Source: an uncultured Candidatus Peribacteria bacterium (GTDB lineage Bacteria > Patescibacteriota > Gracilibacteria > Peribacterales > Peribacteraceae). Taken from it: 51,631 nucleotides of DNA. Made by a program: the position numbers and the translations under genes. The notes beneath the pieces are model-generated. The model saw nothing but the letters and a program-made list of their open reading frames with translations. It was not told the DNA's origin and did no database searches. This document shows, one piece after another, positions 306 through 40,193 of the stretch; positions within the stretch are counted from its first letter, which is position 1, and each line of letters starts with the position of its first letter. The stretch spans positions 1 through 51,631 of the forward strand of contig CAZFCB010000002.1 in the NCBI GenBank assembly GCA_964517585.1, given 5' to 3'.

Positions 306-2012
306 TTACTGGAATCGCGTTCCCTGTGCGATAGGACTGGTACCTTCGATCCAGCGGAAAATACCAGACTCGTCCGTCCACTCCACGCTACCAAGGGACT
401 CCGGTGAGCCTGCAGCTTTTAGTGACGTTTCAAGGATAGCCTGCGTGCCGGGAGGCACGGAGACAGTTGCCTTAAGATCAAGGATGAGTGGTGATCCATT
501 GGACAGAGCTCCAATGGACTGATGAAGAGTTGAACATGTGATTTCCATCGATTGTTCATTGAGCGAGCAGGAAACACTCGCCCCAGATGCTCGATCCATC
601 AGTACCCAATGGCTGACGGTCACTGCGCTATTTTTTACGAGTGAAAATACAAGCTGTCGAAGTTTGAGATTTTTTGTCGGAATAACTGAGCCAAGAAAAG
701 AGTAACTTCCGATGACGATGTCGGTACCTGATGTAAGAGCTGCGGTCTCGGGAGAAACGCGAGTAATACTTGTGATACGACCAAATGCTGTCTGATGCTT
801 GGGGAACGGTCCGCTCAGAGGAATATTCGTCGTCGTATTCGACGTATCGCCTTTGAGCGTTACTGAGAGCGTACGAACTTGCAGCAGCTCATCGGCGAAT
901 CCTGCATTGTCGATAGTACGTATAACTGCCCGAAGGACAACTCGTACATCCGTATCGCTTGGAATAGTAAACTGACTCTCCGGCTGCACCTGAGCTTCGA
1001 ATGTCTGTTTATAATCAGACGTATCGTTATTGGTGCGACGTGTCAGTTTTGCTATGAGCTGCCCCTGCTCAGTCACAAGCTCCAAATACTCGATAGAACG
1101 CACTTCTTGGAAAAGCTTCACCTGTACGATCTGCACTGTTGCCGTCTCACCGTTACGACGGATCACACCATCGGCAATGGCATCTGTGGTGCTGCCGACA
1201 ACGAGAAAATGACTCGTCGACGGCAATGTGAAGAGTGGCGCTACCGATGACGACGACGGGGCTGACGATGTCACTGATGAACTGACGGAAGAAGATGAAT
1301 CCGAGGATGAGCTGGAAGAAGTCGACGGACTGTACTGCCCTGCTTCCGCCAAACGGTACTCCGAAAGTTTACCGGCCTTCTCGGCGATAAAAGCACCTGC
1401 AAGTCGTGCTGCCATGCCGCGTGTCATGGGCGTATCAAACGTGATGCGGGTAGGAATATCCACGCCCTTGGACACTGCAGCTTCATAGTATGGCTGTGCC
1501 CAATCTGCGCCTGTGACATTTGGCACAGAGTATCCAAAAAGAAGCACGAGCATTTTGAGTGCTGCATCGTACGTCACTGTGTCAGCGGGATCGAATGTCC
1601 ACTGATCTTCTGGAAGTGACGCATTGGCGTTGCCACGTACAATGCCTAATTCTTTTGCCGTGCATACATACGGAGCGAACCAATCCGATCCCTGTACATC
1701 CGGAAAACAACTTCGTGGAAATGAAGCCGGACGATAGCCTTCTGGGCTTGCGAGGATAGCAATTTTCAAAAATTCTGCACGATTCACAAGACGAGTAGGG
1801 CCAAAATGCCCCTCACCGTACCCCTGCACAATGCCTTCACTTGTGAGCAGGTTGATACCCGCTGCTTCGTGAGAATCCGGCCGGACATCGGAGTAATAAT
1901 TCGCAGGCTGAATACCGATAGCGAGTGCTGATAAAGGCACGAGAAATGCCGTCAGGAGAAGAATTTGTCTATGCATAGACATATGGTGGCTTGCGAAGGT
2001 CTGCATGCGCAA
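306..2012 (-). CDS. Secreted surface protein with three N-terminal SLH (S-layer homology)-like repeats, a poly-Ser linker and an unassigned C-terminal domain
   Basis: 568-aa ORF. Signal peptide (MHRQILLLTAFLVPLSALA). SLH-like repeats: YSDVRPDSHEAAGINLLTSEGIVQGY...RAEFLKI, FPDVQGSDWFAPYVCTAKELGIVRG, GADWAQPYYEAAVSKGVDI. Ser-rich tract SPSTSSSSSSDSSSSVSSSVTSSAPSSSS. The true start may be an internal Met 10-12 codons downstream. Confidence 0.75.
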   Translation of the reverse strand: MRMQTFASHHMSMHRQILLLTAFLVPLSALAIGIQPANYYSDVRPDSHEAAGINLLTSEGIVQGYGEGHFGPTRLVNRAEFLKIAILASPEGYRPASFPRSCFPDVQGSDWFAPYVCTAKELGIVRGNANASLPEDQWTFDPADTVTYDAALKMLVLLFGYSVPNVTGADWAQPYYEAAVSKGVDIPTRITFDTPMTRGMAARLAGAFIAEKAGKLSEYRLAEAGQYSPSTSSSSSSDSSSSVSSSVTSSAPSSSSVAPLFTLPSTSHFLVVGSTTDAIADGVIRRNGETATVQIVQVKLFQEVRSIEYLELVTEQGQLIAKLTRRTNNDTSDYKQTFEAQVQPESQFTIPSDTDVRVVLRAVIRTIDNAGFADELLQVRTLSVTLKGDTSNTTTNIPLSGPFPKHQTAFGRITSITRVSPETAALTSGTDIVIGSYSFLGSVIPTKNLKLRQLVFSLVKNSAVTVSHWVLMDRASGASVSCSLNEQSMEITCSTLHQSIGALSNGSPLILDLKATVSVPPGTQAILETSLKAAGSPESLGSVEWTDESGIFRWIEGTSPIAQGTRFQ

Positions 2013-7894: not shown

Positions 7895-8257
7895 TTACTT
7901 TGCTGTCATAAGCTTTGTGAGTAGGTATGTTAAACGGGCACAGTGATCTTGTATATCCTTTTGAGCTTCTTCCGTAACGTACCCTAAGGAAGTAGAGAGA
8001 TCGATATGACAATCTACTTCGACTGCGGAACCGCGTGCTCTTGCATAAAATAATTCACGATTTGCCTGTGTTGGCATTGCAGAACCTTCCGCAATATTAG
8101 CCATCACCGAACTCGACGCTCGACGTAGTTGGCTAGTCAAAATGAACAACTCTTCTTTTGGAAATTTTTTGGTGAGTTCATACACTTTTATTGTTAATTT
8201 TTTTGCCTCCTGCCAAACAATAAGTTTCCTGAAGCCATTGTCATATCTTCTTTCCAT
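7895..8257 (-). CDS. Four-helix-bundle protein of the 23S rRNA intervening-sequence protein family
   Basis: 120 aa with the family signature FRKLIVWQEAKKL...FPKEE...SQLRRASSSVMANIAEG...ARGSAVEV. Confidence 0.8.
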   Translation of the reverse strand: MERRYDNGFRKLIVWQEAKKLTIKVYELTKKFPKEELFILTSQLRRASSSVMANIAEGSAMPTQANRELFYARARGSAVEVDCHIDLSTSLGYVTEEAQKDIQDHCARLTYLLTKLMTAK

Positions 8258-13180: not shown

Positions 13181-13236
13181 GCCCTCACGGTAACATTGTG
13201 GAAGCCTCTCGCCAACGCACTCTTGCCGCAATGTCT

Positions 13237-14913
13237 CTACGGTGAGCTTCTCGATGAAGCAAGTGACTCCTCGATGCACGCTGGGATGAATGTGGGCGTA
13301 AGAGCATCATACGTGCCCATATCCTCAGTAAAATCACTCGAACAATACTGCTTCCAAAAATCTGCATCTTTGGACTGAATCTCAGGGTAACAATAACATC
13401 GCTTGTAAGCGTCTTCCTCAAGGTATTTCCCAGAGACGTATGGATGGCAATACGGATTGAATGTGCGTTTGGCTACGGCGTCCAATGTACGCTGACAGTG
13501 GCCATCGACACAGGATCTCGCGAGAAAGAATGTTAACTGTGGAATGTACTTCTTTGGAAGATCGTCATCGACGATCTTGATGAGTGCTTGCACCGCAGCT
13601 TCAAGAGGGACGGAGGAATCTTGCATGCGTTCCAGTGCATCGGTATTCCCCGCCTCAAAGATGCCCATTTCACGCTCAATGTTCGATGTGATCTGCAGTA
13701 ATTTGGTTGACGTATCTGCGGTTCGCGTCAGTGCGTTGAGAAAAGAGTCGAACACTTGTCCAACAAGATAGTTTGGTAATGGCCTACGTAACCCCATTTT
13801 TTCGCGCGCATCGATGTATGAACGTGTCGCAATCCCGGCATTTGGCACGCTCAGGAAATAATCTACGATCGGAAGATGTAGCATGCCTGTTGGCAATGTT
13901 TCATCGGGTGACGGATTGTAGGTAAAGTTACCAGAACCATCATCGCGGAGATTATGCAGCTCAAAATAATCAGGGTATGCACTGAGAATCGCGTTGATCT
14001 GCGCAGGAGAATCTGAGCTGAAATCAGGCTGAAGCGGCTTGAGGCAACCTGTTTTCTCCTCATGCGATGGCGATGGACGAGCGCCGGGAAGAGTATTTGG
14101 TGCAATGGTTCCCGTAAGAACACCTATAACATTATTTATATTAAACAGCGCAAGGCTTACGGTGTTATACAGTGACGTCGAAAAGTTTTCAGTTTCGATG
14201 ATGAAATTTCGTAGTGTCTCCGCTTCTTGATTGTATGGAGCCACAAGCGTTCCGAGAACGTCTTTATCGCAACCAAAACTCCGAACATCGAACGAGGGTC
14301 CGCCAACCACAGCACCACCACCCACGGCAGTAGGAATATACGCAATCGAGTGGACGCCGTAGTCTGTCGTATATGGACAAATTGGCGCAGTGGAGCCGGT
14401 TTCTGTGACAGGATTGCCAGCACCGATGTTCCAGAGCGCACTGTCATGGAATGGATAACGATAGCGGAGGAGATCATTGGTGTATGCAGGATTCGCCCCT
14501 CCTTCAAGAAACGAGTCGTACGCACCAACAAGGAATTTGTATGTTTCTCGGAGGCCTTTTCCTGTGGAAATTTTGCACGCCTGCACTGCTGCGCTCATCG
14601 CTTCCTGCACTTCACGAATCTTAAGTTCAAGCAGATGTTTATCGCTCTGAAAACAGACCGTTCTTTCACGAAGTGATGCAGCCTCCCCCTCTCTTGCTGC
14701 TGCTGGGATTATGAGGGAACGAATCAGCGTCTGATTATTATCAATTTCCGATGCGAGAGTCAGTGGATTACATGACGTCTCAGACAGTCCATTGGCAAAA
14801 CTGACACCAGCATCAGCTCTCTCTAAGACCCCTTGAACCCACGGCGAGAGCGCCTCAGCGTGTACCGCAGTAGGAAGGAGGAGGAAGCCAATGATCAGAA
14901 ATAGGCGCTTCAT
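13237..14913 (-). CDS. Cluster member 5 of 5: secreted cysteine-rich protein, no recognisable domain
   Basis: Start set at MKRLFLIIGFLLLPTAVHA (signal peptide), which makes an ATGA overlap with the stop of the upstream gene. I count 13 Cys, concentrated near the C-terminus (RSCVDGHCQR, NPYCHPY, KRCYCYP). Confidence 0.8.
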   Translation of the reverse strand: MKRLFLIIGFLLLPTAVHAEALSPWVQGVLERADAGVSFANGLSETSCNPLTLASEIDNNQTLIRSLIIPAAAREGEAASLRERTVCFQSDKHLLELKIREVQEAMSAAVQACKISTGKGLRETYKFLVGAYDSFLEGGANPAYTNDLLRYRYPFHDSALWNIGAGNPVTETGSTAPICPYTTDYGVHSIAYIPTAVGGGAVVGGPSFDVRSFGCDKDVLGTLVAPYNQEAETLRNFIIETENFSTSLYNTVSLALFNINNVIGVLTGTIAPNTLPGARPSPSHEEKTGCLKPLQPDFSSDSPAQINAILSAYPDYFELHNLRDDGSGNFTYNPSPDETLPTGMLHLPIVDYFLSVPNAGIATRSYIDAREKMGLRRPLPNYLVGQVFDSFLNALTRTADTSTKLLQITSNIEREMGIFEAGNTDALERMQDSSVPLEAAVQALIKIVDDDLPKKYIPQLTFFLARSCVDGHCQRTLDAVAKRTFNPYCHPYVSGKYLEEDAYKRCYCYPEIQSKDADFWKQYCSSDFTEDMGTYDALTPTFIPACIEESLASSRSSP

Positions 14914-16757
14914 GGTGCTGAGGAGCGGAACATTCCTGTCCAAGGACATGCGCTCTGTGTCAGCGGAGCGTTTTTTAGAGACGAGAAAAGATCTGCAATA
15001 TGCTGCACAAAGTGAGCAAGTTTCCCGAACATTTTTCTTTCAAGTTCTATGGACTGATCAACGGCACTCCTCTGACCAATGGACGCTGCGATGGCATTGA
15101 AATCTTCTCCTCGCTGTGACAGGAATGTACTGAGGCCTTGCGTTGCCTGGCTGTTGAGAAATGGATTTGAAATTGGCAATGCTGCATTCTCATTGTCGTT
15201 ATATGTACATAAGCCCAAGAGAGCCTGAGGTGCGTCTCCATTTTTGGAACAGTACTGGCGCTCGAAATCTTTCACGAGAAATGTGCCGATATATTCTGGT
15301 AGAGGATAGGGCGAATCTTCCGCGATTTCCGTGTACAAACCAAGCTGAGGATCTGGGCGAATGCATGCGAGATACGGAGACGTCGCTTCATTGATGACGA
15401 CTGGATTACGATTGGGAATAAGTGTGTGTCCACTCATCGACTGCAAAAGACATAGGCCGACGTAACACGCATTCGATGTGATGTCATCTTGGTAGAGAAT
15501 CTTTTTCTCCGGAGAACAAATTTTGGCAAGATCTGCCTTCTCCAGTGCGGGATTCAGATGTCCTGGATCATTCGGATCTTCAAGAGGAATACCTGTGTCT
15601 GTAAATAATGTATCGAAGCCACGGCAGATAGCAGGTCCACTCTTGGTTTCTGTAACTTTTTCCGAGCATTGTACAAGTGTAATACTTGATCCATCGCCAG
15701 AGTTATCGCAATGTTCGACTGTCTTTGGAAGGGGGCGACACACGTACCCTTGTCTTCCGATCATGCGACTACACAATGGAGATGTAATGGCATTACCTGA
15801 TGGCGGACCACTACCCTTGTACGCAAAGGGGTATGCAAGATTGTCACCATTCGTCACAAATGTCGGATACGCGTCCGCCGGTTCCAGTGTCAGCCGAAAC
15901 GCATGCGTGGGGTACACCCACATCAACCCGATATCATCCTTACGTGCCCAGAGTGCAACATTTTTTGTGTTCAGTTTTGGAGTCGAAAAAATACCGAGTG
16001 CCTCTGGATCACCAGAAATACCGAGCGCATTTGCGACGTCACCTAATTTGCCACCGACAGAGTCCACCACGCCGGAGAACCGTGGATCCGCTTCGCGTTG
16101 ATCACGGAAATATCCATGATGAAAGCGAAGAATCGCTCTATCGAGATCTTCTTCGCTGAGTCCACTGAGTTCAGCATCAAGATCGGACACCTGGGTATCG
16201 GCACTGCCGTCCCATGGAATGATGGAAGATCCCGTTCCTGACCAAACACGACGAAGTAGTAGAGCATAGAGCGCCATGTCGATTGGCCGATGTGGTTCAT
16301 CTGCAATTGCAAGTTCTGAACCGCTAGCGAGTGTCATCAAGTCTGCACCGAGTTGCTCGACTTCCTGTTCTGCTGTTAGGAGTGCGAGGATATCAGCCTG
16401 TAGTGCGAAACATGATCCTGGCACAAACGCTGCACCCTGAGCGAAATCGTAACCGTTTCCAGACATATCGACTTTGTTCTGACAGAGTCCTTCATTGCCA
16501 TCGAGTGCAAACGTGCCTGCAATGGCGAGATCAATATCGTCAACGGTCAGCTGAATGCCGCGCGTTCCCCATGACTCCATTTCTTTCACAACAAATCTTG
16601 CGATTCGCTCTGTTGGCTTAGCAGTAGGTGAGGCCTTTTGTACTTGATCGTAGAAGAGATCAAATATCGTTGTAGGAGATGGCACCGCAGCAAGCGCTAC
16701 ACGAGGGCTGAGAGCTGCCAGCATCATGCCTGTTGTGAGGACAAGAGTTCGGATCAT
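14910..16757 (-). CDS. Cluster member 4 of 5: secreted cysteine-rich protein, no recognisable domain
   Basis: Start set at MIRTLVLTTGMMLAALSPRVALAA (signal peptide), which makes an ATGA overlap with the upstream stop. I count 14 Cys. Confidence 0.8.
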   Translation of the reverse strand: MIRTLVLTTGMMLAALSPRVALAAVPSPTTIFDLFYDQVQKASPTAKPTERIARFVVKEMESWGTRGIQLTVDDIDLAIAGTFALDGNEGLCQNKVDMSGNGYDFAQGAAFVPGSCFALQADILALLTAEQEVEQLGADLMTLASGSELAIADEPHRPIDMALYALLLRRVWSGTGSSIIPWDGSADTQVSDLDAELSGLSEEDLDRAILRFHHGYFRDQREADPRFSGVVDSVGGKLGDVANALGISGDPEALGIFSTPKLNTKNVALWARKDDIGLMWVYPTHAFRLTLEPADAYPTFVTNGDNLAYPFAYKGSGPPSGNAITSPLCSRMIGRQGYVCRPLPKTVEHCDNSGDGSSITLVQCSEKVTETKSGPAICRGFDTLFTDTGIPLEDPNDPGHLNPALEKADLAKICSPEKKILYQDDITSNACYVGLCLLQSMSGHTLIPNRNPVVINEATSPYLACIRPDPQLGLYTEIAEDSPYPLPEYIGTFLVKDFERQYCSKNGDAPQALLGLCTYNDNENAALPISNPFLNSQATQGLSTFLSQRGEDFNAIAASIGQRSAVDQSIELERKMFGKLAHFVQHIADLFSSLKNAPLTQSACPWTGMFRSSAP

Positions 16758-17719
16758 GGTTTCCTGTCGTGAATAGATGTCGTAGCGTCCCAAATTTTTG
16801 GCATACAACTCACCGCGTCTGCAAGTAAGCTCATTTCATTTTTGAGATCAAGCGATGCGCGTTGATAGCACAACAACTGTTTTGCTGTGGCATAGTTCAT
16901 CTCGAATGAACGGATGGTATTGAGAGTGCGTTCTACTGCCACGCGTGACGTTTGACGCTCTTCAATCACCGCTGAGTGAAGAATAGGCATTCTTGCAGCA
17001 AGATCGGACATATAGAGAAGAACCGGACATGCGCCGTCACATTGAGGGCTATCCGTCAGCGGCGTTTGGCACATGGCCTCATCAGTTTGTTGTCTGCAAC
17101 CTCCAGAATCTCCAACAGCGATGCAACAGAATTGTGCAGGTTTATTGATATCGTTATTCAGTGAGACTTCTGCGATGTTTCTGTCTTGAATCTCGGTCAA
17201 TTTGCATTCGTACTCCCGCTGGAATTCGGCAACAACTGCACCAAAAGATGCAAACGTTACTGGTCTCAGAACAGGAATAGATGCTCCTCCGAATACGAAA
17301 GGCACAGTGACATAGTAATGCCAGCCTGGAAGTGCATCTGCGAGCGCGCGAAGCTTTGGGATGGAAGGTTCGCCCGCAGCACCAATGCCACACTTCCACT
17401 TGGATGGATTTTTTAAAATATCTTCTCTCTCGCCAACAATATTCGACATCGCTTCCCGATACATTGCGCGCGCTTCATCAATATTTTCGATGTTTTCAAA
17501 CATCGTGCCGACAGAATTACATGACCGCAGACTTTCTACCGAGGTACTGGATCCACCTTCGCCTCCGCTGGAACCTGTCCCTAGAATGTCGCCGCGTAGA
17601 AAACGCGTGGAGCCTGCGGCGATCATCAGTACAAGAATTGTCAGGACAATGAATGGGTGACGGACAAGCGCCGTCTTTCCGTCCTTGAAGCCAGTGACGC
17701 AAAATTCGATAATGGTCAT
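16754..17719 (-). CDS. Cluster member 3 of 5: single-pass membrane-anchored cysteine-rich protein, no recognisable domain
   Basis: Start set at MTIIEF, which makes an ATGA overlap with the upstream stop. One hydrophobic helix (HPFIVLTILVLMIAAGS), then a Gly/Ser stalk (GTGSSGGEGGSSTS) and an ectodomain with a dense Cys patch (QFCCIAVGDSGGCRQQTDEAMCQTPLTDSPQCDGAC). Confidence 0.75.
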   Translation of the reverse strand: MTIIEFCVTGFKDGKTALVRHPFIVLTILVLMIAAGSTRFLRGDILGTGSSGGEGGSSTSVESLRSCNSVGTMFENIENIDEARAMYREAMSNIVGEREDILKNPSKWKCGIGAAGEPSIPKLRALADALPGWHYYVTVPFVFGGASIPVLRPVTFASFGAVVAEFQREYECKLTEIQDRNIAEVSLNNDINKPAQFCCIAVGDSGGCRQQTDEAMCQTPLTDSPQCDGACPVLLYMSDLAARMPILHSAVIEERQTSRVAVERTLNTIRSFEMNYATAKQLLCYQRASLDLKNEMSLLADAVSCMPKIWDATTSIHDRKP

Positions 17720-18450
17720 GGTGTGAGGTCGTTCGTATTGGGAAGATCGCACTGTCCGATGAAACACGGAATTTGATGCAGTTTGCCAAGCATATTCACC
17801 ATGTCGGAAATTGCTTTTACTGTTTGGGTTGGAAATCCTTCAAGCATCCAATCCACCATGCCAGCAAGTTGTAGTAAGGACCTGTAACCGCTGTCATATG
17901 CGACAGCGAGCCGCAAGATTGCGCGTTCGGACGCGAGAGTCTCCGCTACAAGTCTTTGGCAATTTCTGACGGTATTTGTGGCGTCTGTCTGGAGCTTGGC
18001 ACTGTCGTCTTGGTTCGATGCAAAATAACATTCTTGATACCGATTCACGGTACGTTCTTTGCAACCAAGAAGATGCATGTCTATTTGTCCGCCATCGGTT
18101 TCAAATGATTTTGCAGCAATCTCACAGACAGCTTGCGAGCGACAGCGATACACTCGGTAACTTTCGATGATGGGTTCAATGAGTTCGGATGTCAGTCTCT
18201 GTTTCGTTTCAAAAATACCTGTGCGTTCTTCGTCAACTTCGCCAGCTGTCAGAGCAAGAATTGTGCCATCAGATGCTCTCCTGCTTCCAAAGAGACGAGA
18301 TCTCCAGTCGTCCTGAATAGCTACGAGTTCTGACGCGACACGTGCAAAGCATGTGTTTTCATTATTTTGAGCAGCGTATGCCACTGGCGATCCAAATGGC
18401 ATGACTAGCGCGATGCCGAGAGCCGCTATTGTCAGAATATTGTTCTTCAC
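17716..18450 (-). CDS. Cluster member 2 of 5: small secreted, probably helical, cysteine-containing protein
   Basis: GTG start overlapping the upstream stop (GTGA). Signal peptide MKNNILTIAALGIALVMPFGSPVAYA. I count 8 Cys. Confidence 0.78.
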   Translation of the reverse strand: MKNNILTIAALGIALVMPFGSPVAYAAQNNENTCFARVASELVAIQDDWRSRLFGSRRASDGTILALTAGEVDEERTGIFETKQRLTSELIEPIIESYRVYRCRSQAVCEIAAKSFETDGGQIDMHLLGCKERTVNRYQECYFASNQDDSAKLQTDATNTVRNCQRLVAETLASERAILRLAVAYDSGYRSLLQLAGMVDWMLEGFPTQTVKAISDMVNMLGKLHQIPCFIGQCDLPNTNDLTP

Positions 18451-21400
18451 GGTGTTGGAGGGGGAATATCAAGCTTCGTTGTTATGGGCAGACTCAATTT
18501 CGGAAAAATACGCTGTAGGGTATCAAGGCTCGCATTGAAGTATGGATTTTTATCGAGATTATCGTTTTCTGGAAGAGACTGTGACCGTAGTGTGTCGCCA
18601 AGAGCGGTAAAATCTCCTCCTGTGACATCCGGCATGAACCACTGCCACGTCGTGCTCGTACGTTTTTCGGGAGGGAGCAAATAGCACACGACCCCTTCAT
18701 GACACTTCGGAGGATTGTTGGGGTTCGGAAAATCTTGCTGACGCCTTGCGACTCGTCCTGCAAAATCCTCTTCGCGTTCTGGTATCCATCGAGAGAAAAG
18801 ACGAGCTAAGCGTTCCTTAAGATCATTCTCGACATGGATAATTTTCGCAGGATTTCCATGCTCCTGATCTGGATCAGGAGGAATGAGAATGCTCGGTGGA
18901 AAGCGACAATACGCACCGCGCATGCTCCCTCGATCAAGTGGGAAATTATCGTCACCACCGTCGATGGATGCTCCTGCGGCAAGTGCTTGTTCTTCATTGA
19001 TCTGTGTACCGATGTCAGTTCCGTCAATCATCTTTCGAAATGTACGCAAAATATTTTTTGCCGGCTCTAAGTCTTGGGTACTTGGCGGTGTGATGAGAGA
19101 CTTCGCCGGAAGATCAACACTTGGCACTGGGAAAGCACTGAATATTGCCTCGTTTGGCAGCGGTGGCAATTCAGGAAAATCGTCAGGAGATGGCGGCTCA
19201 ACACCAATAATTGGCGGAAGAGGTAACCGCACGCGCACTTGCACAGGCCATAACGTAGGAATGAGCCATGGATCACGCGGAAATTTCACATTCGAGAAAT
19301 CAAAGAATTGATCCTTTGGCTGAACGTATCCAAGGTCGGTGAGACTCTGTGGTGTGTAATCCCGGTTACGTTTCTCGCCTGGCTGCCGATCACCCCACCA
19401 GTTATCGAGGAGTGAGTAGATCGGCGCAGAGTAACGATGATTGCTACACCACCGAATCTGGCAGGCGTCTGCCTGAAGCATTCCTCGCTGCAAAAGCCTC
19501 CAGATGCGTTTCAGCTCACGACGCTGGACAGCACGCTGCGCAGATTCTTCAAGGAGCACACTATTCTGTTGGTACCAATCGGCAAAATATTCACGAATTT
19601 GTTTCTGAGAATCGAAAAGCTTGACGAGGTATGTCAGAAGCGAGCCTCGCATGAGCCGAATCTGTTCTACCCTCTCTCTGTATCGCTCTAATTTTTCAAT
19701 GATCGTCACAGCTGCGTCAGAGAAGGAGTTCCGACCTTCCAAGATTGCAGTAGCATCTTCATCAATTTTCCAGAGCTTCCAATCTGCGATCCGCGCATCG
19801 ATCTCTGCAACGGAGATAAGAGGCACGAGTACGGGTATTCTCACCTCCTGAATTGGTGCGACGAAGATCCGCTGAAAAGACTTGAGAACATTACCAAGAT
19901 CCTCAAGACCCGATTTCAGTGTGAGCTCTACCGTGCCATCGGAGCGTGAGACAGTCTGACTGACATACTGAAACAGTGGATCATCATCAGAGAGTCCAAC
20001 AAGGAATCGTGCAGGCATGATGAGTCGCGTCTGTGGATCTGCAGTCATCTTGAGGAGTTCGCGTTGTTGTGCCTCGAAGAAGATCGCCAGATCACGGTCG
20101 TCCGTGTCATCAAATTGATCGGTACGTGCATTTTTTGGCACAGTTTTACTGCCTGTCTGTCGCGTCGTCAGGAGTGTTCCAAAGATAGCCGTTACATCCG
20201 TTGGATCTTCGAAATTCTTCTGTAATTCCTTGAGTTTCTCGATATCAATCAGTGTCAAATTTGTATCTGAATCAGGCTTCCATGGTTCTGGATGATTGCG
20301 TGGATCTCGAGGATTTTCCTGTACTAAGCTCGGGTCTGGCGTGACTGTTTCTTTCTGGGTATGTCCATTACCGTCTTTCCACTCAGGTTTCTTTGGGTTT
20401 TGTTCATCATCAGAAGAGATCACAAATTCACATTGCTCATCGATGCCAGGTGTCACATCAAATTTCGGATCGTAGTCTGTTCCATCTGCATTTGTTTCTT
20501 TGTAATACTCATAACACTCAGCGCGAACTTGCCAGACATTATCTCCGCCAGGCGCCGTTACGGAAATTTTCGGCACCATAAAATTTTCGGCATAGTGCCG
20601 ATAATACGAACTTGCGATTGCCCAGTGGCCACCCCATATATCCACGATGATGCGATATCGTGTTTCGACAAAATTCCCTTCATCATCCATGACGTCATAT
20701 GGTTCCGCATGGCATTCTGTCATTTTATTATAAAATTCCCGATCCCATGGTGTTCTGCACGTCGTGTCTTGCGGTGGGTCGTCTGGCCATGTTGTCGCGA
20801 CCTTTGTGCGCTTGTCGCTTGTACCCCGACACTCAAATGTGTACGGCGGATCAAAGCAGTACCGTTTCTCCGGTCCAACCGGACATCCATCATTTGGTTC
20901 TGGGCACGGACATGCGGCTGCGGGGTCTTCGCGCGGCATGATTGCCGATGCCTGTCTCCATGCATCATAGAGACGTTTGCAAAACTTCGGTGTCGCCTTA
21001 TCTGTGCGTAGGCACCAGTCGTACGGATTGATGTCGACTTTGCCAACGCCATCAACAATTTCTACTGATCCATCCTCGTGAATAACAAGATCCTTTTGTA
21101 AGCGCTTCAGATCATCATCTATGTAACTATCGTCGTACACGCTGCACGCAGAACTGTATCCCCATGCGCTATCGGGGAATTCAAAGTCGCTACGTTCTCC
21201 GATACCTGTTTTTGGATCAAAAAGTGGACCGATATTCCTCCGGCCAGGAAGATCTGGGCTGATGTCAGGAATCGGCACGTCACCATTGACTCTTGTGCCA
21301 GCCACCGTCGCATTCGAGTCTTCATCCCAACCACCGCATTCCACAGAATTGATGTTCTGACGCATCTCATCTAAGCCAAACGTAATGTCTTTGTATGACG

Positions 21401-21527
21401 TTGGCACGTTCATCTTCGGAATAAACGGTGCAGCTAGAGCACTCTTCGTCATGACAAGTGATGACAAGACAACAAATGTCGTCAGTGCATGCCGTACAGA
21501 GATAGCGCGAAAATTCTCACAATGCAT
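18447..21527 (-). CDS. Cluster member 1 of 5: 1026-aa secreted protein with a Cys-rich N-terminal third, a Cys-free middle and a Pro-rich C-terminal part
   Basis: ATG start. Signal-like N-terminus (RHALTTFVVLSSLVMTKSALA). Cys at about residues 63-366, then none until about 689. Pro-rich segment RLPLPPIIGVEPPSPDDFPELPPLPNE. Confidence 0.85.
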   Translation of the reverse strand: MHCENFRAISVRHALTTFVVLSSLVMTKSALAAPFIPKMNVPTSYKDITFGLDEMRQNINSVECGGWDEDSNATVAGTRVNGDVPIPDISPDLPGRRNIGPLFDPKTGIGERSDFEFPDSAWGYSSACSVYDDSYIDDDLKRLQKDLVIHEDGSVEIVDGVGKVDINPYDWCLRTDKATPKFCKRLYDAWRQASAIMPREDPAAACPCPEPNDGCPVGPEKRYCFDPPYTFECRGTSDKRTKVATTWPDDPPQDTTCRTPWDREFYNKMTECHAEPYDVMDDEGNFVETRYRIIVDIWGGHWAIASSYYRHYAENFMVPKISVTAPGGDNVWQVRAECYEYYKETNADGTDYDPKFDVTPGIDEQCEFVISSDDEQNPKKPEWKDGNGHTQKETVTPDPSLVQENPRDPRNHPEPWKPDSDTNLTLIDIEKLKELQKNFEDPTDVTAIFGTLLTTRQTGSKTVPKNARTDQFDDTDDRDLAIFFEAQQRELLKMTADPQTRLIMPARFLVGLSDDDPLFQYVSQTVSRSDGTVELTLKSGLEDLGNVLKSFQRIFVAPIQEVRIPVLVPLISVAEIDARIADWKLWKIDEDATAILEGRNSFSDAAVTIIEKLERYRERVEQIRLMRGSLLTYLVKLFDSQKQIREYFADWYQQNSVLLEESAQRAVQRRELKRIWRLLQRGMLQADACQIRWCSNHRYSAPIYSLLDNWWGDRQPGEKRNRDYTPQSLTDLGYVQPKDQFFDFSNVKFPRDPWLIPTLWPVQVRVRLPLPPIIGVEPPSPDDFPELPPLPNEAIFSAFPVPSVDLPAKSLITPPSTQDLEPAKNILRTFRKMIDGTDIGTQINEEQALAAGASIDGGDDNFPLDRGSMRGAYCRFPPSILIPPDPDQEHGNPAKIIHVENDLKERLARLFSRWIPEREEDFAGRVARRQQDFPNPNNPPKCHEGVVCYLLPPEKRTSTTWQWFMPDVTGGDFTALGDTLRSQSLPENDNLDKNPYFNASLDTLQRIFPKLSLPITTKLDIPPPTP

Positions 21528-21738
21528 CGTGCGTCAGTGTACGCGATGACTCTTCGTTCCTCCTATTATTGAGGCTAAAAAATTTAGTATCGGAAAACAA
21601 AAAAATATTCCTTCAATCTTTTCTTGTTGCACACTCGTTTCAGTGGGTGTACGTTCGTTCACGTCAACTGCTGGCGCTTCTGTGGCGCCACATAATGCAC
21701 CGGCACGTGACCTCCTTTACTCCCATTCCCCCTCAGCG

Positions 21739-22605
21739 ATGTTCTCTCTCAATCGTATCGACATCATCGGATACCAGACACAACCAGTCACCGTTCGCCA
21801 GACACCCGGCGGCGCGAGTGTGACCGATCTTAATATTGTCGTTCCATACTCATTCCAGTCGAGTAAGGGCGAAACGCTTTCCGGCAAAAGCTTCCACACA
21901 GTGACCGTGTGGGGGGCAATGGCGGACGTTGCTGGCCAATATGTCAAAGCTGGTTCTCAGCTTTTTGTTTCTGGTCGCCTTCAAACTGACTCCTGGGATG
22001 ACACGACAAGTGGTGAGAAGCGTAACAAAACAAAAATTGTCGCGATGGACTTGATTCTCCTTGATCCTAAAGACGGCCAGCGCGAGGCTCCATCCGGAGC
22101 TGCTAGTCTCACGAGTTGCGTGAATCGTGCACAAGTTGTTGGTAACGTCACCCGGGAACCAGAAATGCGAACGACGACGAGCGGCCAATCTGTTCTCACT
22201 CTTGGTGTCGCAACGAATGAGCGATGGAAAGAGAAGGCAACAGGTGAACTAAAAGAGCGCTCTGAATTTCACAATGTCGTGGTCTGGGGTGATACGGCCA
22301 AGGCTGTCCACATGAACATCAAGAAAGGCCAACGCGTCTATGTCACTGGCCGCGTACAGACTCGCACGTGGGAAACGCAAGAAGGAAAGAAGCGTGCCAC
22401 AACGGAGATTATCTCAGATCAGGTGACGCTACTTGGCCTCAAGAGTGCTGATGCTATCTCTAACGTCCAGTCTGACGGCGCTACTGAAGTTGAATCCGCA
22501 CAGCCTTCACGCACTTCTGAGAATGCGACTCCCGTCGCTGCCGGAGGCGCGATGCCGGATATTAAATACGAATCCGAAATCAAGCCGGAGGATTTACCGT
22601 TTTAA
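21739..22605 (+). CDS. ssb: Single-stranded DNA-binding protein with two tandem OB folds and an acidic C-terminal tip
   Basis: Two SSB-like modules: MFSLNRIDIIGYQTQPVTVRQTPGG...HTVTVWGAMADVAGQYVKAGSQLFVSGRLQTDSW and VNRAQVVGNVTREPEMRTTTSGQ...HNVVVWGDTAKAVHMNIKKGQRVYVTGRVQTRTWE. A flexible tail ends in EDLPF. The start is set at the internal ATG MFSLNR. Confidence 0.88.
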   Translation: MFSLNRIDIIGYQTQPVTVRQTPGGASVTDLNIVVPYSFQSSKGETLSGKSFHTVTVWGAMADVAGQYVKAGSQLFVSGRLQTDSWDDTTSGEKRNKTKIVAMDLILLDPKDGQREAPSGAASLTSCVNRAQVVGNVTREPEMRTTTSGQSVLTLGVATNERWKEKATGELKERSEFHNVVVWGDTAKAVHMNIKKGQRVYVTGRVQTRTWETQEGKKRATTEIISDQVTLLGLKSADAISNVQSDGATEVESAQPSRTSENATPVAAGGAMPDIKYESEIKPEDLPF

Positions 22606-23746: not shown

Positions 23747-24211
23747 TCACCTACTGATCAAGTCCGTCACTTTCTCCATGGATTCATACAGCTTCTCTGA
23801 AAAAATATCCTTCTTCTGTGTCTTTTGAAGTAGCGCAACAAGAACGACAGCTCCAGCGATGACAGCAAGAATAATACCGAGATCCTGTATTGCCGGCTGG
23901 ATGCGGAAGAGAAGGAGGCCGAGGAATATTGCGACTGCAAGAAAAACACCGGCAATGATGCCGACGCCGAACGTTACGATGACAAGTTTTGTTCGATCTT
24001 CCTGCTTGTCCTGCGGAGCAGATGCGAGTGCAGTAAGAAGATCGCTACTCACGATCACAGGGTCATTGTCGCTGCGCTTAAAGAGTACTTGCACCTTACG
24101 CTGCAAAATAAGGCTCACGAATGTTTTAAAGGGAACAGAGGTCTTACCCTCGATCACTGCCTTGCCGCTTGTGTTACTAATCTCTACTTCGAGCTCGTCC
24201 ATGGAACGCAT
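23747..24211 (-). CDS. Hypothetical membrane protein with two predicted TM helices
   Basis: Hydrophobic stretches LVIVTFGVGIIAGVFLAVAIFLGLLLF and LGIILAVIAGAVVLVALL. The start is set at MRSMDELEV to avoid overlapping the gltX 3' end. Confidence 0.6.
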   Translation of the reverse strand: MRSMDELEVEISNTSGKAVIEGKTSVPFKTFVSLILQRKVQVLFKRSDNDPVIVSSDLLTALASAPQDKQEDRTKLVIVTFGVGIIAGVFLAVAIFLGLLLFRIQPAIQDLGIILAVIAGAVVLVALLQKTQKKDIFSEKLYESMEKVTDLISR

Positions 24212-24221
24212 TGTACCAGAC

Positions 24222-25784
24222 TTAGACTGGTGCAACTGCAAGACGTTTCATTGTTTCAGTTTTACCGAGCAGGTCAGCCACTTCGTACGCACCCGGGCTG
24301 TACTCGCGACCAGTGAGCATGGCTCGTAGCGGCCACAGGACCTGACCCTTTTTAAAGCCAGATGCAGGGAGACCATTTTCAATAGCAGCAACGATGGATT
24401 CGCGATTCCACACGTCTTCTGACACGGAGCCAAGTTGAGTGTTCAAAAAGTGCAGAATTGCTTCCACCTGAGAAGGCTCTATTTTTTGTTTCGGATTCGC
24501 CACGAGTGCCATCGTAGGGCTTACTGGTGCGTAAAAGTACCCGAGCATCTCCGGTGCTTCCTGAAAGAACATAATACGTTCCTGAATGAGAGCGGCGCGC
24601 TTCATAAATACTGAGTCACTCGCTGCTGCAGGAAACTTTTCACTGACAAGAGGGAGGATTCTTGCCGCGAATTCTTCCACAGGAATCTTGCGCATCCACT
24701 GACCTTGGAGCCAATCGAGTTTTTGAAGATCAAAAACGGCGCCTGCTTTCTGCACTCGCTCAAGAGTAAAAGCCTCCACGAGTTCTGGGAGTGAAAATAT
24801 TTCTTGTTCGGTACCCGGATTCCACCCAAGGAGCGCGAGAAAGTTGAGAAGTACCTCCGGCAAGTATCCCTTGTTCAAATAGTCCTCGACTGCGACTGAA
24901 TTTTTTCGCTTACTGAGTTTTGTGCGATCTGGATTTAAGATGAGTGGCATGTGCGCATACTTCGGAGCTTCCCAGCCGAGAAATTTGAAAAGTAAAAGAT
25001 GCTTGGGGAGTGACGACAGCCATTCTTCTCCACGATTCACAAGATCTATCTTCATGAGATGATCATCGACGACGTGTGCGAGGTGATACGTCGGAAACCC
25101 GTCGGATTTTAGGAGAACTTGGTCATCAATGGTGTACCCCTTAAACGTCAATGTCCCATAAATAATGTCATCGTACGTCACAGACTCTTCACGCGGTACT
25201 TTCATGCGGATGACATGTTTTTCGCCAGCGGCTATGCGTTTCTCGACTTCCTTCTGCGGAAGAACGGCACATGTTCGGTCGTACATCGGCGCCTGCTTTC
25301 TCTTCTCTTGGTCTGTGCGCATCTGTTCTAGTCGCTCAGACGTACAGAAGCAGTGATACGCGTGACCAGACTGCAGTAACGCATCGGCGTACGTACGGTA
25401 CACATCGAGACGCTTGGACTGATGATAAGGCCCGTAGGAACCTTTTTCGACAAGCTCACCGTGCGCATCCAGTACGACGCCTTCATCGGGTGCGAGGCCG
25501 ACCTTCGTGAGAGTGCGGACGATATTTTCTGTTGCACCCTGCATCTCACGAGCCTGATCAGTATCTTCGATCCGAAGCGTAAACGTGCCGTGTGTCTTCC
25601 TTGCAACGAGCCACGCAAAGAGCGCCGTACGAAGAGCACCGACGTGAAGAAGGCCTGTTGGTGAGGGTGGAAAGCGAGTGCGCAAAGGGAAGGAAGGGTA
25701 GGTTTGGAACGTAGAGTAGGAAGAACTCGTATTGTCAGAATAACGAAGCCCCATCTTACCTACCAACCCTATCATCCTTACCAC
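24222..25784 (-). CDS. gltX: Glutamyl-tRNA synthetase; start codon uncertain
   Basis: Class I motifs PSPTGLLHVGALRTALF (HIGH-type) and TKLSKRK (KMSKS-type). The catalytic core begins at LRTRFPPSPTG. The roughly 30 upstream codons are encoded by a pyrimidine-rich motif block and may be leader; an alternative TTG start lies directly before RTRF. Confidence 0.9.
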   Translation of the reverse strand: MVRMIGLVGKMGLRYSDNTSSSYSTFQTYPSFPLRTRFPPSPTGLLHVGALRTALFAWLVARKTHGTFTLRIEDTDQAREMQGATENIVRTLTKVGLAPDEGVVLDAHGELVEKGSYGPYHQSKRLDVYRTYADALLQSGHAYHCFCTSERLEQMRTDQEKRKQAPMYDRTCAVLPQKEVEKRIAAGEKHVIRMKVPREESVTYDDIIYGTLTFKGYTIDDQVLLKSDGFPTYHLAHVVDDHLMKIDLVNRGEEWLSSLPKHLLLFKFLGWEAPKYAHMPLILNPDRTKLSKRKNSVAVEDYLNKGYLPEVLLNFLALLGWNPGTEQEIFSLPELVEAFTLERVQKAGAVFDLQKLDWLQGQWMRKIPVEEFAARILPLVSEKFPAAASDSVFMKRAALIQERIMFFQEAPEMLGYFYAPVSPTMALVANPKQKIEPSQVEAILHFLNTQLGSVSEDVWNRESIVAAIENGLPASGFKKGQVLWPLRAMLTGREYSPGAYEVADLLGKTETMKRLAVAPV

Positions 25785-34625: not shown

Positions 34626-35279
34626 GTGTCTCTCCGACGTACGATCATCGGCCTGACGTTCGGTTTTGTGCTTCTGTTTTCACAAACGGCGTCAGCCGCA
34701 GAAGATGTTTCCTGTCTCCAGAAAGCGATCGATCGTCGCCAGACAGATCTTAAAGATACGTACATGGAATATTCGAAGATGATGACTGATGCCGTGACTC
34801 GGCTCACGGCAGATGAAAAGTCTGCACTAGGCCAGACTGACTCAGGTTATCGTCAGAACAGTACATCAGCTGCGCTCAGTAATTTTAGGTACGCTGTGGA
34901 TTCGAATTGGCAGCAACTATCGGCACGTTTGTTTCAAATTTGGAGTGGCTACTACCGGGAACGCTACCAGTGCGGATTTGCTCAGGTAGCACCGCCAGCG
35001 TACGGCGGTTACAACAATAATGCGAACTACGGTGTTCGTACTTATTGCACACAACCGGTATTGCAAGCGCCTCCTGCTGGCTGCAACTTCGAATGTGCAC
35101 GCGATAGTAACGGATGTGATCGGTGCCATCTCGCGTGTCGTACTCCTGTTAGTTATTCCGCCTGTGGCTGCCCCCCTCTCCTTAGCCCTGTCTGTTCGCG
35201 AGATAATCGTACGTACGATAACGCCTGCCTTGCATCATGCGATGGCAGAACGATATGGCACATCGGCGTGTGTCAGTAA
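34626..35279 (+). CDS. Secreted protein with a C-terminal Kazal-type (serine protease inhibitor-like) domain
   Basis: GTG start. Signal peptide MSLRRTIIGLTFGFVLLFSQTASA. The C-terminus CGCPPLLSPVCSRDNRTYDNACLASCDGRTIWHIGVC matches the Kazal pattern C-x-PVC-x-D-x-x-TY-x-N-x-C-x(5)-C-x(n)-G-x-C. Confidence 0.7.
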   Translation: MSLRRTIIGLTFGFVLLFSQTASAAEDVSCLQKAIDRRQTDLKDTYMEYSKMMTDAVTRLTADEKSALGQTDSGYRQNSTSAALSNFRYAVDSNWQQLSARLFQIWSGYYRERYQCGFAQVAPPAYGGYNNNANYGVRTYCTQPVLQAPPAGCNFECARDSNGCDRCHLACRTPVSYSACGCPPLLSPVCSRDNRTYDNACLASCDGRTIWHIGVCQ

Positions 35280-35309: not shown

Positions 35310-38300
35310 TTACTCTGCATCTGCAGGTGTTTCTTCTCCATCTTTCTTCTTGACAGCCTTCGATTTCTTTTTTTGAATCAAAGAAGAAATTTGGACAGTT
35401 AGTTCCGGCAACCACTCATCTGTCTGTGCAGCTTTTTTAAGGTCCGACTCGGAGATACGCAGTGTCGTTCCTACAATGCGCCACTGCGGACAGATGTGGA
35501 GGAGCTGCATGATTTCTGTGGCTGTCACGCGTGGTGCAAGACTGACGACGATGTCGCGCTTTGCAGCAGACACAGTGTCCATCTTGATCCGTACGACTCC
35601 GGCACGACGACATGCCATTTTTAACCGAATAACAGAGAGAAGGCTTTCTGCCTGTTTTGGCAGTGGCCCGTATTCCTCACGGAGGTCTTCGCCGAAATCA
35701 GCGAGCATCGCTTCATCTTCAGAGCCTGCTAATTTTTGGTAGACACTGATTTTCTCTTGCTCGTCGGGAATATAGAATGATGGAATGAGTGCTTCAAATG
35801 GCAGAATAATTTCGATTGTCTGTGGCATCTCGTCCTCAGAACCCTTGCCACCAGCTTTCAGCTCTTCTACTGCGCTCTTGAGTAAGCGTAAATAATGGCT
35901 GACGCCAACGGTTTGCATGTTCCCGGACTGCGATGCGCCAAGGATTTCTCCTGCGCCACGTATCTCAAGATCTCGCATGGCAATTTGGAAGCCACTGCCA
36001 AGCTCACTCGCCTCTACGATGGCTCGCAGACGCTTCTTTGCGTCATCTTTCAGGCGCTGTGAATGATAGAGAAAATACGAGTACGCCTGCACCGTTCCTC
36101 GGCCAACGCGACCACGAAGCTGATAGAGCTGCGAGAGTCCAAACTTCTCGGCCTCATTGACGATTAGTGTATTAGCCCTCGGAAGATCGATACCGTTTTC
36201 GATGATCGTGGAACTTACGAGCACGGAATACTTCCCATTTTTAAAATCCACGATGCGTTCTTCCAGAAGCTCTGGTTTTAACTGTCCGTGGGTCACTACA
36301 AACGTCGCCTGTGGGATAAGCGCCTTGAGCTTCATCGCGAAGGCATCGATCGTCTCAACGCGATTGTGAAGCATGTAGACCTGTCCGCCGCGTTCGACCT
36401 CTTTCATGATGGCCTCACGTACAAGTGCATCTGAATACTTGCGAACTTCAGTGATGATGGGAAGCCGCCCAGGAGGAGGGGTGGTGATCGTTGTGATATC
36501 ACGAAGTTTGTGGAGTCCTAAATTGAGCGTTCGGGGAATGGGAGTCGCCGTCATTGTGAGAATATCGACGGCGGCACGCAACTCTTTTAGCTTCTCTTTT
36601 TGCTTCACGCCAAACCGCTGTTCTTCGTCGATGATCACAAGGCCAAGGTCGCTAAACTGCACGTCGTCTTGGAGGAGCCGATGTGTACCAACGACGATAT
36701 CAACACTTCCTTCACGAAGTTTTCTCAATGTTTCTGTCTGCTGCTGTGGCGTACGAAAACGAGACAGTACATCGATTCTTACGTTGAAGCCGTCCATGCG
36801 TTTCTGAAGACTCCGATAATGCTGATCTGTCAGAATGGTGATAGGGGAGAGAAATGCTACTTGCTTTCCACCTTGAACAGCTTTGAATGCTGCGCGCATC
36901 GCGACTTCTGTTTTTCCGAACCCAACGTCTCCACAAATAAGACGATCCATCGGGTGGCCGCTCTCCATGTCATGTTTGATATCCTCGATGGCCTTGATTT
37001 GTCCGGGTGTTTCTGTGTACGGAAAGGCGTCATCAAATTTCTGCTGAATATCACTATCATCAGGGAATGAATTTCCTTTTGCCCTCGCTCGATTTGCGTA
37101 AATTTCAAGCAGTTCTTTCGCAACTTTTTGCGTCTCTTCATTCACCTTTTTTGTAATCTTCTTCCACTCCGATGACCCAAGTCGTGTGAGGACAGGTTCT
37201 TCGCCTTCTTCATGAACAAATTTACTCAGCTTATCCGCCTGATCAACTGGGACGAATAATTTATCGTTCTCCGCATACGTGATCTCCAGATATTCACGCT
37301 CAACATCATCCACTATTTTCGCCGTCATCCCCTCAAAACGACCAATGCCGTGCTCCATGTGAACGACGAAATCCCCAACCTGCAGAGACGTAATGAAATC
37401 AAGTGCCAAACGCTGTACAGATCTTTGCTTCGCCTCTTTCCTTAGAGAGAAAATTTCGCGATCAGTAATCAGCGCGCACTTCAGGTCTGGATTTTGGAGT
37501 GAATGGGGAAGAAGTTCATCCTGAGCTGCTGGAACAATTGTGACGGAGCCAGGCTTTCGTTCCGGTGCGTCAAGATACTGAATTCTTTCTTCTTGTAGCA
37601 CACCCTTTAGTTCGTCAGAGCGCTTGCTTACGATGACGAGCGTCCAATCTTGCTGCAACTTATCTTTCACATCGTTGATAAAGTCTGGAAGTGTGTAGAA
37701 CTTCAGTACAGACAAATACCGGAGATGGACATGAACACCTTCGTCCTCTGGAAAACTTGTCAATTTTACTAAGTCGCATGTCTGAGGAATTTCCATTTCC
37801 TCTTGTTCATCTGTAACAAGCACTGATGTACCAGGGAACTGCTGAGAAAGTGTTCTTGTCTCACTCCAAGAGATGGGATAGATCACCATGGATTTCAGTT
37901 GATCGGAACCACCCCCATGTTCTATGCGTATGTCTTCCACTTTCCCAAAAGAGAAACTGATTTTGTACTGTGTCTCCTCGCCAATAGGAAAAATATCGAG
38001 CGCATCACCAATACGTCGGTATTCACCAGGGGAAAGATGTTGATCACCTGAGTGCTCATATCCCGCATCAATGAGTAATGAGAAGAACGTTGTAAAATCA
38101 GCAGTCTCACCTACTTTCAAAAGGATTGCATGCTCTTTGATTTCCTCGAAAGACGGTAATTCCACATCCCACGTCGCCCTGTCCATCACAGCGATTCCTT
38201 CGCCTTTCATAATTTTGATGATAGATGAAACATCGTCAGCCGTTGGTTCGGCGCCAAATGTTACGTGAAAGGCGTCTTTACCGAAGAATGAAATCCAATG

Positions 38301-38498: not shown

Positions 38499-38618
38499 TC
38501 GAAAAATGGAGTGTCAGCCAGGAAATATTGTTTTTCACTATCGAAATGTCTCCCCTCACCTTCATCTTTGAAGGGTGGTGGGGCGCAGGATCGTCCTGCA
38601 ACTATGTATAAATGTACC

Positions 38619-39776: not shown

Positions 39777-40193
39777 AACCGAATTGAAGACGAAGTTTTT
39801 TGATTAATCAAGCGGTTCTTTTCATTATTATACAATAAATAGTCCTTCCTGTTTTTCTGATGAAGATAGTAGGTAATATAAAATATATTAATATCGTCAT
39901 AGTCATAGACTATTGTTACTTTTAAAAAATTATCGTGAGGTCATCTGGAAAAACTAGTCTGTCTCTATTTTGTACTCAAACTTTTGCCGTATGAGTATGC
40001 AAAAAAGATATAAAAGTGAACACTTCTCGTGTGTGGAAATACTGTGGATAACCTGTGGATAAAAAAGTGAAGAGCGCTTTGTTCCATTGAAATGGTGATT
40101 AGCTTTTGTTCTAGCCAAAGCCAAAATAACTATGTGTATAAAAGATCCTGGATCAGGAAAGCCAAGGCGAACCTTTCCACAGTGACCAAAAGC
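39777..40193. other. Putative chromosomal replication origin (oriC) region
   Basis: 417-bp non-coding spacer upstream of dnaN. An AT-rich tract lies at about 39830-39960. Three DnaA-box-like 9-mers are spaced 11 bp apart: TGTGGAAAT 40032-40040, TGTGGATAA 40043-40051, TGTGGATAA 40054-40062. Weaker boxes: TGTGTATAA about 40133-40141 and TTTCCACA about 40174-40181. Confidence 0.6.

Follow-up and report, generated by a model that had tools for sequence, protein, structure and literature searches.

When considering a 51,631-nucleotide stretch of DNA from an uncultured Candidatus Peribacteria bacterium (GenBank assembly GCA_964517585.1, contig CAZFCB010000002.1, positions 1 to 51,631; hereafter, the window), one block of genes raises a simple question: what are five consecutive genes that appear to encode only exported proteins of no recognisable kind doing between ssb and dnaE? 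The genes, here denoted A to E, are open reading frames (ORFs) of the minus strand that together span positions 13237-21527, that is, 8291 nt or 16% of the window. A prediction made from the sequence alone (hereafter, the original prediction) had seen in them a core gene set coding for a cell-surface complex, perhaps an attachment apparatus. Comparison with related genomes shows that A-E constitute a core, lineage-defining operon of the Peregrinibacteria/Peribacteria which encodes five unrelated proteins with predicted Sec-type export. The feature is real, strongly conserved, not mobile and not previously described, and a disulfide-stabilised surface complex is the mechanism that we consider best supported.

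The block is compact. Gene A (18447-21527; 1026 amino acids, aa) is followed by gene B (17716-18450; 244 aa), the GTG start codon of which overlaps the stop codon of A (GTGA). Gene C (16754-17719) encodes 321 aa when read from the ATG that overlaps the stop codon of B (ATGA), its maximal open reading frame extending to 17767, and genes D (14910-16757; 615 aa) and E (13237-14913; 558 aa) each begin with an ATG overlapping the stop codon of the preceding gene. All four junctions, at 18447-18450, 17716-17719, 16754-16757 and 14910-14913, are 4-nt start/stop overlaps of the GTGA or ATGA type, the classic arrangement for translational coupling; by this arrangement, A-E are shown to be coupled genes. 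The re-derived coordinates agree with the original prediction in the number, strand and sizes of the open reading frames, as well as in the total length of 8.3 kb and the share of about 16%. Every overlap is preceded by ACC, so that the sequence at the four junctions reads ACC(A/G)TGA and A, B, C and D each end with a proline; E is Pro-terminal as well, even though its stop codon overlaps nothing.

How widely is this arrangement kept? We found 36 non-redundant related loci, all from Candidatus Peribacteria/Peregrinibacteria, members of the candidate phyla radiation, and in a scan limited to one genome per GTDB species, the 32 loci recovered were all located in metagenome-assembled genomes of Peribacteria or Peregrinibacteria. 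When seven proteins of the window were compared to the related loci by tblastn, A-B-C-D-E proved collinear in every locus that was long enough, with a divergent ssb upstream in all loci reaching that far and dnaE usually immediately downstream; across about 30 genomes, the distances at the junctions nearly always lie between -4 and +7 nt. The complete genome of Ca. Peribacter riflensis carries the block as ORFs 963-967 (1030, 279, 263, 821 and 521 aa), flanked by ssb (ORF 962) and dnaE-tsaC-nrdR (ORFs 968-970). In the 2016 genome tables these five ORFs are annotated solely as "hypothetical protein", under which name the genes have been public ever since (Anantharaman et al. 2016, PMC4736985), and our survey of the literature yielded no description of A-E beyond this label.

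The homologues of the individual proteins come from the same organisms. Gene A has 42 homologue clusters (at 90% identity), essentially full-length and 38-100% identical, every named one of which belongs to Candidatus Peribacteria/Peribacteraceae; the 76 clusters of D, nearly all full-length, show the same taxonomic restriction, and B has 146 clusters, each a stand-alone protein of about 205-280 aa and, wherever a name is given, from Peribacteria. These homologue searches found none of the A, B and D families outside this context. A profile search with A, conducted with no word index against 1.84 billion representatives, retrieved 212 proteins, 144 of them at E<1e-30, with the named ones assigned to Peribacteria, Peribacter or Peregrinibacteria. 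Four of the weakest listed relatives of A (loci L038-L041; profile E ~1e-29 to 1e-38) still sit in the order ssb, A, B, C, D, E, dnaE, with A enlarged to 1347-1836 aa and D to 693-986 aa. The five genes, hence, co-occur in every relative with a sufficiently long locus, including those in which A is recognisable by profile only.

Between genomes, the A-E proteins are 30-77% identical, as compared to 71-88% for dnaE and 64-86% for ssb. By these values, A-E change more rapidly than the housekeeping genes beside them and yet are never lost in the sampled loci; B, C and E keep very stable lengths and cysteines across orthologues. A mobile island was considered and rejected, since the GC content of the block equals that of its flanks and the synteny is lineage-wide. 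Two scans of IMG/VR revealed no relatives of the block on viral contigs. Together with the co-occurrence in the same order and the tight junctions, these observations bear out the original notion of a core, non-mobile and presumably co-transcribed gene set, and the sampled loci show that A-E have been kept together, in the same order and at the same chromosomal place, across the whole lineage sampled.

The next question is where the products of these genes reside. In A, B, D and E the N-terminus starts with a basic n-region, which leads into a hydrophobic core and a cleavage site of the AxA type, with the putative cuts (slash) at ALA/A near residue 32 in A, AYA/A in B, ALA/A in D and VHA/E in E. 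In C, some 20 charged residues come first, then a hydrophobic stretch of about 20 aa (about residues 20-40) and a Gly/Ser linker; this N-terminus looks like an N-in signal anchor. In nearly all orthologues of A-E the N-terminal hydrophobic segments are retained; the assignment of export is a heuristic that combines N-terminal hydrophobicity with this conservation. By this heuristic, the originally proposed signal peptides of A, B, D and E stand, whereas the single transmembrane anchor proposed for C holds in the window but is not a universal property of the family, as detailed below. Other routes to the surface left no trace: a regular expression for the prepilin motif (G/FTLxE) found nothing in the first 60 residues of A-E, no LPx[TSA]G sortase signal occurs anywhere in the five proteins, the C-termini of which are polar and end in proline, and no lipobox was found. 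Nor do A-E match an SLH or other wall-binding domain of Pfam, which is meaningful for SLH because Pfam easily picks up (E=4e-17) an SLH-domain protein encoded at another place in the window (306-2012).

The cysteines provide the second line of evidence on the location of these proteins. The original counts of 19, 8, 12, 14 and 13 Cys in A, B, C, D and E were reproduced exactly; 18, 8, 11, 14 and 13, respectively, belong to the mature part or ectodomain. In terms of content, this is 1.9-3.7% as against 0-2.5% in most neighbours in the window, or a 1.1- to 2.2-fold enrichment over the mean of 1.67% reported for the Peribacteria proteome (PMC4736985). The designation "cysteine-rich" in the original prediction is, hence, justified as to enrichment, which is modest, but not in the sense of the truly Cys-rich proteins of this lineage, mostly at 5-11% (PMC4736985). 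As for positions, all 8 cysteines of B, 14 in D and 13 in E occupy conserved columns; A has 12 invariant cysteines and several near-invariant ones, and the ectodomain of C has 5 invariant cysteines plus a 6-Cys insert present in most Peribacteria. By these alignments, the cysteines of A-E are fixed positions and not compositional noise.

Furthermore, when cysteines are counted on the mature part only, their number is even in 37 of the 40 orthologues of A, in all 32 orthologues of B (always 8) and in 67 of the 72 orthologues of D; it is odd in 33 of 34 for C, with counts of 5, 7 or 11, and in 24 of 32 for E. In E, Cys48 and Cys113 are lost jointly in six lineages, which suggests that they form a disulfide pair. 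Across the sampled genomes the cysteines of A-E are, thus, shown to be near-invariant and to be gained or lost in pairs, a signature of structural disulfides, for which an oxidising environment outside the cytoplasm is required. A disulfide-bond-formation protein has been reported from Peribacteria (PMC4736985). That A-E are exported and disulfide-bonded seems to us very probable.

The odd counts in C and E had led to the suggestion of an intermolecular disulfide between the two proteins, and here the comparison is less favourable. The count of E is even in 8 of 32 genomes, in 7 of which C remains odd, and the last cysteine of E (Cys546) is dispensable, being missing in several lineages while C stays odd. 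As E can be even while C stays odd, a C-E disulfide cannot be obligatory; such an obligatory bond, for which the combined parity of C and E fails in 8 of 32 genomes, was set aside, and the original suggestion is weakened accordingly. The unpaired cysteine of C appears to be the robust feature, and a C-C dimer, or a free or reactive thiol, is a simpler reading that fits the parities better.

Do these proteins resemble anything known? Searches of A-E against Pfam, NCBIfam, PHROGs and PADLOC gave no significant match, with nothing below E=0.008 in the latter two, and, together with the motif scans, they uphold the earlier statement that no motif in these proteins can be named. The enlarged distant orthologues of A and D likewise contain no significant Pfam domain, including PilY1/PilC and pilin domains. 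Profile hidden Markov models of all five families found nothing below E=0.1 among PDB sequences, and single-sequence PDB searches with A, D and E produced no real match either; the best weak matches were to coiled-coil or helical proteins (keratin, EsxB and TRIM63; E>0.1), and the one to EsxB (E=0.29, over a helical hairpin) is insignificant. Components of type IV, type VII or other secretion systems were not detected in A-E by Pfam, NCBIfam or PDB profile matches, and the operon, which comprises five exported proteins only, includes neither an ATPase nor a polytopic channel gene. An anti-phage defence or phage structural identity finds no backing in PADLOC, PHROGs or IMG/VR, or in the BFVD structures searched with A. 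Cysteine-bearing repeats, DUF4215 or other, are not matched by A-E of the window; a single DUF4215 insert (the Myxococcus-type Cys-rich repeat; 30.8 bits, above the cutoff) is found in the distant E orthologue of L040 (18271-19926). The A orthologue of the same locus (L040:10001-14293) has a sub-threshold collagen-like Gly-X-Y stretch.

At the level of structure, Foldseek with the AlphaFold2 model of A found no match in the PDB (best E=1.9, cutoff E<=0.001) or in BFVD, and the model of D had no match in the PDB (best E=8, same cutoff), the mean predicted local distance difference test score (pLDDT) of both models being 72. A confident match to a described system was, thus, found neither with profiles of all five families nor with Foldseek of A and D. 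Novelty of fold is apparent for A and D only, at the confidence that these models allow, and the absence of a recognisable domain applies at the profile level to all five. Paralogy among A-E was also rejected: hhalign aligned only signal peptides and, between C and D, an insignificant 9-residue motif, [IL]V.[ED]F[QE]R[EQ]Y. The five families, therefore, seem to be mutually unrelated, which fits distinct subunits rather than duplicated adhesins.

The models suggest how A and D are built. That of A, derived from a 40-sequence alignment, contains, towards the N-terminus, a confidently predicted beta-rich domain that bears cysteines (about 90-380; pLDDT about 90), and continues with a disordered acidic/Pro-rich linker (387-470), an alpha/beta region, an 89-residue helix (603-691), a Pro-rich stretch and a helical C-terminus. 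The model of D, based on 72 sequences, consists mainly of helices, the C-terminal one being 65 residues long (532-596), and has low-confidence loops (328-377) that hold several of the 14 conserved cysteines. The distant orthologues of A keep profile positions 10-120 and about 290-830, and the segment of about 120-290 is replaced by 500-700 aa; the lineage-specific insertions of D, at profile positions of about 278-316 and 370-400, are the low-confidence Cys-rich loops. In our reading of these alignments, A and D are each a conserved scaffold plus large, lineage-specific hypervariable modules.

The surroundings of the block are as follows. Upstream, ssb diverges from gene A, and the AT-rich spacer of about 214 nt between them (21528-21741, assigned to neither strand) is the presumed promoter region of the operon; a promoter consensus scan of this spacer gave no match. 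The start of ssb was deduced from the Pfam match of the ORF at 21742-22605 (plus strand), the 287-aa product of which has two SSB/OB-fold matches within the same chain; the SSB orthologues in all related loci are of similar length, 284-292 aa. Downstream, the stop codon of E is separated from the ATG of dnaE (13180) by 56 nt (13181-13236), and no terminator-like hairpin was found in this spacer, so the original description of the block, divergent from ssb and 56 nt upstream of dnaE-tsaC-nrdR-aspS with no obvious terminator between, is confirmed, with the addition of one small ORF between nrdR and aspS (7895-8257, minus strand; 120 aa), the product of which may resemble the four-helix-bundle proteins that are frequent in 23S rRNA intervening sequences. 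Co-transcription of A-E with dnaE is possible on this layout. More broadly, the block belongs to a conserved co-directional run of lspA, ftsW, murG, a gene for an exported peptidyl-prolyl isomerase (PPIase), gltX, a gene for a small transmembrane protein and murB, which is followed by ssb, A-E and dnaE. The product of the small gene between gltX and murB (23747-24241, minus strand) is a membrane protein (about 155-164 aa) for which Pfam gave no match, and a gene of similar size (147-155 aa) occupies this place in most related loci with called genes, being absent from L038 and L039.

In other lineages the spacer between E and dnaE is a site of insertion that has received both surface-type and unrelated genes. 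Those directly after E comprise a genuine prepilin (MKRSGFTLMELL...; N_methyl match of 26 bits, cutoff 21.2) at L041:19991-20431, a 1143-aa surface protein with a LamG domain at L011:18864-22295, an RRM-like RNA-binding protein together with an AAA-type ATPase-like ORF at L033:17938-20502, another RRM-like RNA-binding protein at L036:12082-12627, and a 289-aa ORF with no family assigned at L009:8235-9104. Elsewhere in the window, the exported SLH-domain protein mentioned above (306-2012, minus strand; 568 aa) has two SLH domains, which implies that the organism has SLH-anchored wall or S-layer proteins, and the ORF at 34626-35279 (plus strand) encodes an exported protein of 217 aa with a Kazal_2 domain (E=7.6e-6, above the Pfam cutoff) that, at 6.45% Cys, is the most Cys-rich of the window; Kazal-type serine-protease-inhibitor domains are unusual in bacteria. 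The GC content of the window, about 0.48 on average, falls to about 0.40 at 38000-41000, around dnaN and its upstream spacer.

What, then, could such a set of proteins do? We propose that A-E undergo oxidative folding beyond the cytoplasmic membrane and combine into a hetero-oligomer; that they form a single complex seems rather probable to us. In Peribacteria, this complex would be tethered to the membrane via the signal anchor of C and its flexible Gly/Ser linker, with the unpaired cysteine of C remaining a free thiol or engaging in an intermolecular bond, most simply within a C-C dimer and possibly, for many lineages, with E. The 89-residue helix of A and the 65-residue helix of D would, together with the conserved regions of A, D and E, make up a scaffold or stalk, and the insertion-prone segments (positions of about 120-290 in A and the Cys-rich loops of D) would face outward. 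The weakest step of the scheme is the last one, namely that the exposed variable part would bind something external, such as the surface of a host cell or a substrate, in which case the complex might serve these presumed symbionts as a constitutive device for contact or attachment.

The likelihood of this scheme decreases from its beginning to its end. An oxidatively folded surface complex with a variable outward part, tethered to the membrane in Peribacteria, is, taken as a whole, a tentative reading that we regard as quite possible yet short of probable. A role of the complex in contact with a host or a substrate is a possibility to be entertained with more reserve, and we consider it doubtful that the operon encodes a heteromeric, disulfide-locked surface machine of new folds, unique to Peregrinibacteria, which serves as a host-contact organelle, with the head of A and the loops of D setting host specificity. 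Still, the surface complex or attachment apparatus of the original prediction stays plausible and gains one new piece of indirect support, namely that both A and D join a conserved scaffold to large insertions of a lineage-specific kind. The context of the block also includes surface proteins: SLH-domain and secreted Kazal-domain proteins are encoded in the window, and the pilin gene of L041 and the LamG gene of L011 lie right after E.

Several observations weigh against the proposed surface complex. The models of A and D are of moderate confidence, as their pLDDT averages 72 and drops under 50 for about 20% of residues, and a test for coiled-coil heptads in the long helices gave just a marginal result (P about 0.03-0.05). 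The export of A-E is predicted from hydrophobicity patterns, and the four most distant orthologues of C have a signal-peptide-like, apparently cleavable N-terminus and not a membrane anchor. The summed cysteines of C and E are odd in 8 of 32 genomes, which leaves no covalent C-E arrangement valid for all of them. At the site between E and dnaE, further insertions have no surface connection. Finally, adhesins tend to vary in number and position, and to find them strictly conserved as single copies at a housekeeping locus would be unusual; such conservation fits an envelope-structural or biogenesis role equally well.

Such a role, the main rival of the proposed one, would make A-E a wall-zone scaffold required to build or divide the unusual envelope of Peregrinibacteria and that, for example, organises peptidoglycan, the S-layer or secondary polymers. 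We deem it somewhat unlikely, although one would look in this case for just such a core operon, present in one copy, retained universally and placed at a housekeeping locus, in which B, C and E have very stable lengths and cysteines, and the run of lspA, ftsW, murG, the PPIase gene, gltX, the small transmembrane protein gene and murB that adjoins ssb, A-E and dnaE points the same way. A heavy investment of Peribacteria in envelope components has been reported as well (PMC4736985). However, gene neighbourhood is weak functional evidence in small, rarely rearranged genomes, no enzymatic or wall-binding domain (SLH, LysM, peptidoglycan-binding, PASTA etc.) turned up in any orthologue tested by Pfam, and the large lineage-specific insertions of A and D are more typical of exposed, ligand-facing proteins. 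One could also imagine that A-E are five independent secreted proteins, merely co-transcribed and possibly unrelated in function, that never share a complex. The five families are unrelated indeed, and, if the block is co-transcribed with dnaE, operon membership here need not imply a shared function; but the fixed order and the overlapping or abutting codons, kept down to loci in which A is similar by profile only, are hard to explain without functional coupling, and the homologue searches found none of the families outside this context, so that we regard mere co-transcription as improbable.

Another alternative brings in the type IV pilus. In operons of the fimU-pilVWXY1E type, the products of which are thought to form one surface-exposed assembly, an exported protein of about 1000 aa (PilY1/PilC) is accompanied by smaller ones, and A-E, with one large protein of about 1000 aa and then smaller exported ones, might similarly be an accessory tip or anchor module of a type IV pilus or pseudopilus, with a role like that of PilY1 plus minor pilins. 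Peribacteria do encode type IV pili and a system resembling the type II secretion system (PMC4736985), and in L041 a genuine prepilin gene abuts E. Nevertheless, this pilin neighbour is seen in one lineage only, at a site that also takes unrelated insertions, and no pilus assembly genes are located nearby. None of A-E has a class III (prepilin) signal, all signals being of the Sec type; pilin fold signatures and the PilY1 domain are missing, with no PilY1/PilC or pilin Pfam match in any orthologue tested, and conserved disulfide networks are present instead. In addition, the large gene lies near the end of the pilus tip operons, whereas it comes first in A-E. A pilus module is, in our judgement, very improbable.

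Two other kinds of known systems invite comparison with the proposed surface complex. The GldKLMN/PorKLMN- and Mce-type envelope-spanning complexes are, like A-E, encoded by multi-gene sets of extracytoplasmic or anchored subunits with long helical parts and one N-terminal anchor, but A-E have no Pfam or NCBIfam match to them, and the operon lacks a polytopic membrane or energising subunit. In function, A-E may nevertheless act as a pilus tip or an adhesin complex does, or as these scaffolds do. The closest described counterparts, from the same lineage, are the large, very cysteine-rich extracellular proteins of Ca. Peribacter riflensis, which mostly contain 5-11% Cys and are about 1650 aa long on average (Anantharaman et al. 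2016, PMC4736985, Table S4). Many of these are weakly annotated as pappalysin-like or integrin FG-GAP proteins, a weak similarity to a Myxococcus Cys-repeat being mentioned in the text, and many are encoded in a separate cluster of 14 genes; the authors proposed a role in attachment (PMC4736985). A-E are akin to them in lineage, Sec export, the presence of Cys and the lack of annotation. In contrast, A-E contain 1.9-3.7% Cys and no repeats, their cysteines being fixed rather than repeat-borne, and the riflensis orthologues of A-E, ORFs 963-967, are absent from Table S4 of that work. By exclusion, then, the A-E system would fall outside every known kind, a placement that rests on the negative searches and on two models of moderate confidence.

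To our knowledge, the ways in which bacteria of the candidate phyla radiation recognise and attach to their hosts have been described mainly for the Saccharibacteria, and we know of no host for the Peregrinibacteria. Hypothetical operons restricted to one lineage are common in genomes of this kind. The operon may, nevertheless, offer a concrete handle on host contact, being universally retained, single-copy, made up of exported proteins only and without relatives elsewhere, and its products would be experimentally approachable candidates through which to study the cell surface of this uncultivated symbiotic lineage. Should their role prove structural, they would still add five protein families, at least two of which (A and D) have apparently new folds, as a lineage-defining feature of the envelope. 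In either case, the block of ssb, A-E and dnaE provides a clean, synapomorphy-like genomic marker of this lineage.

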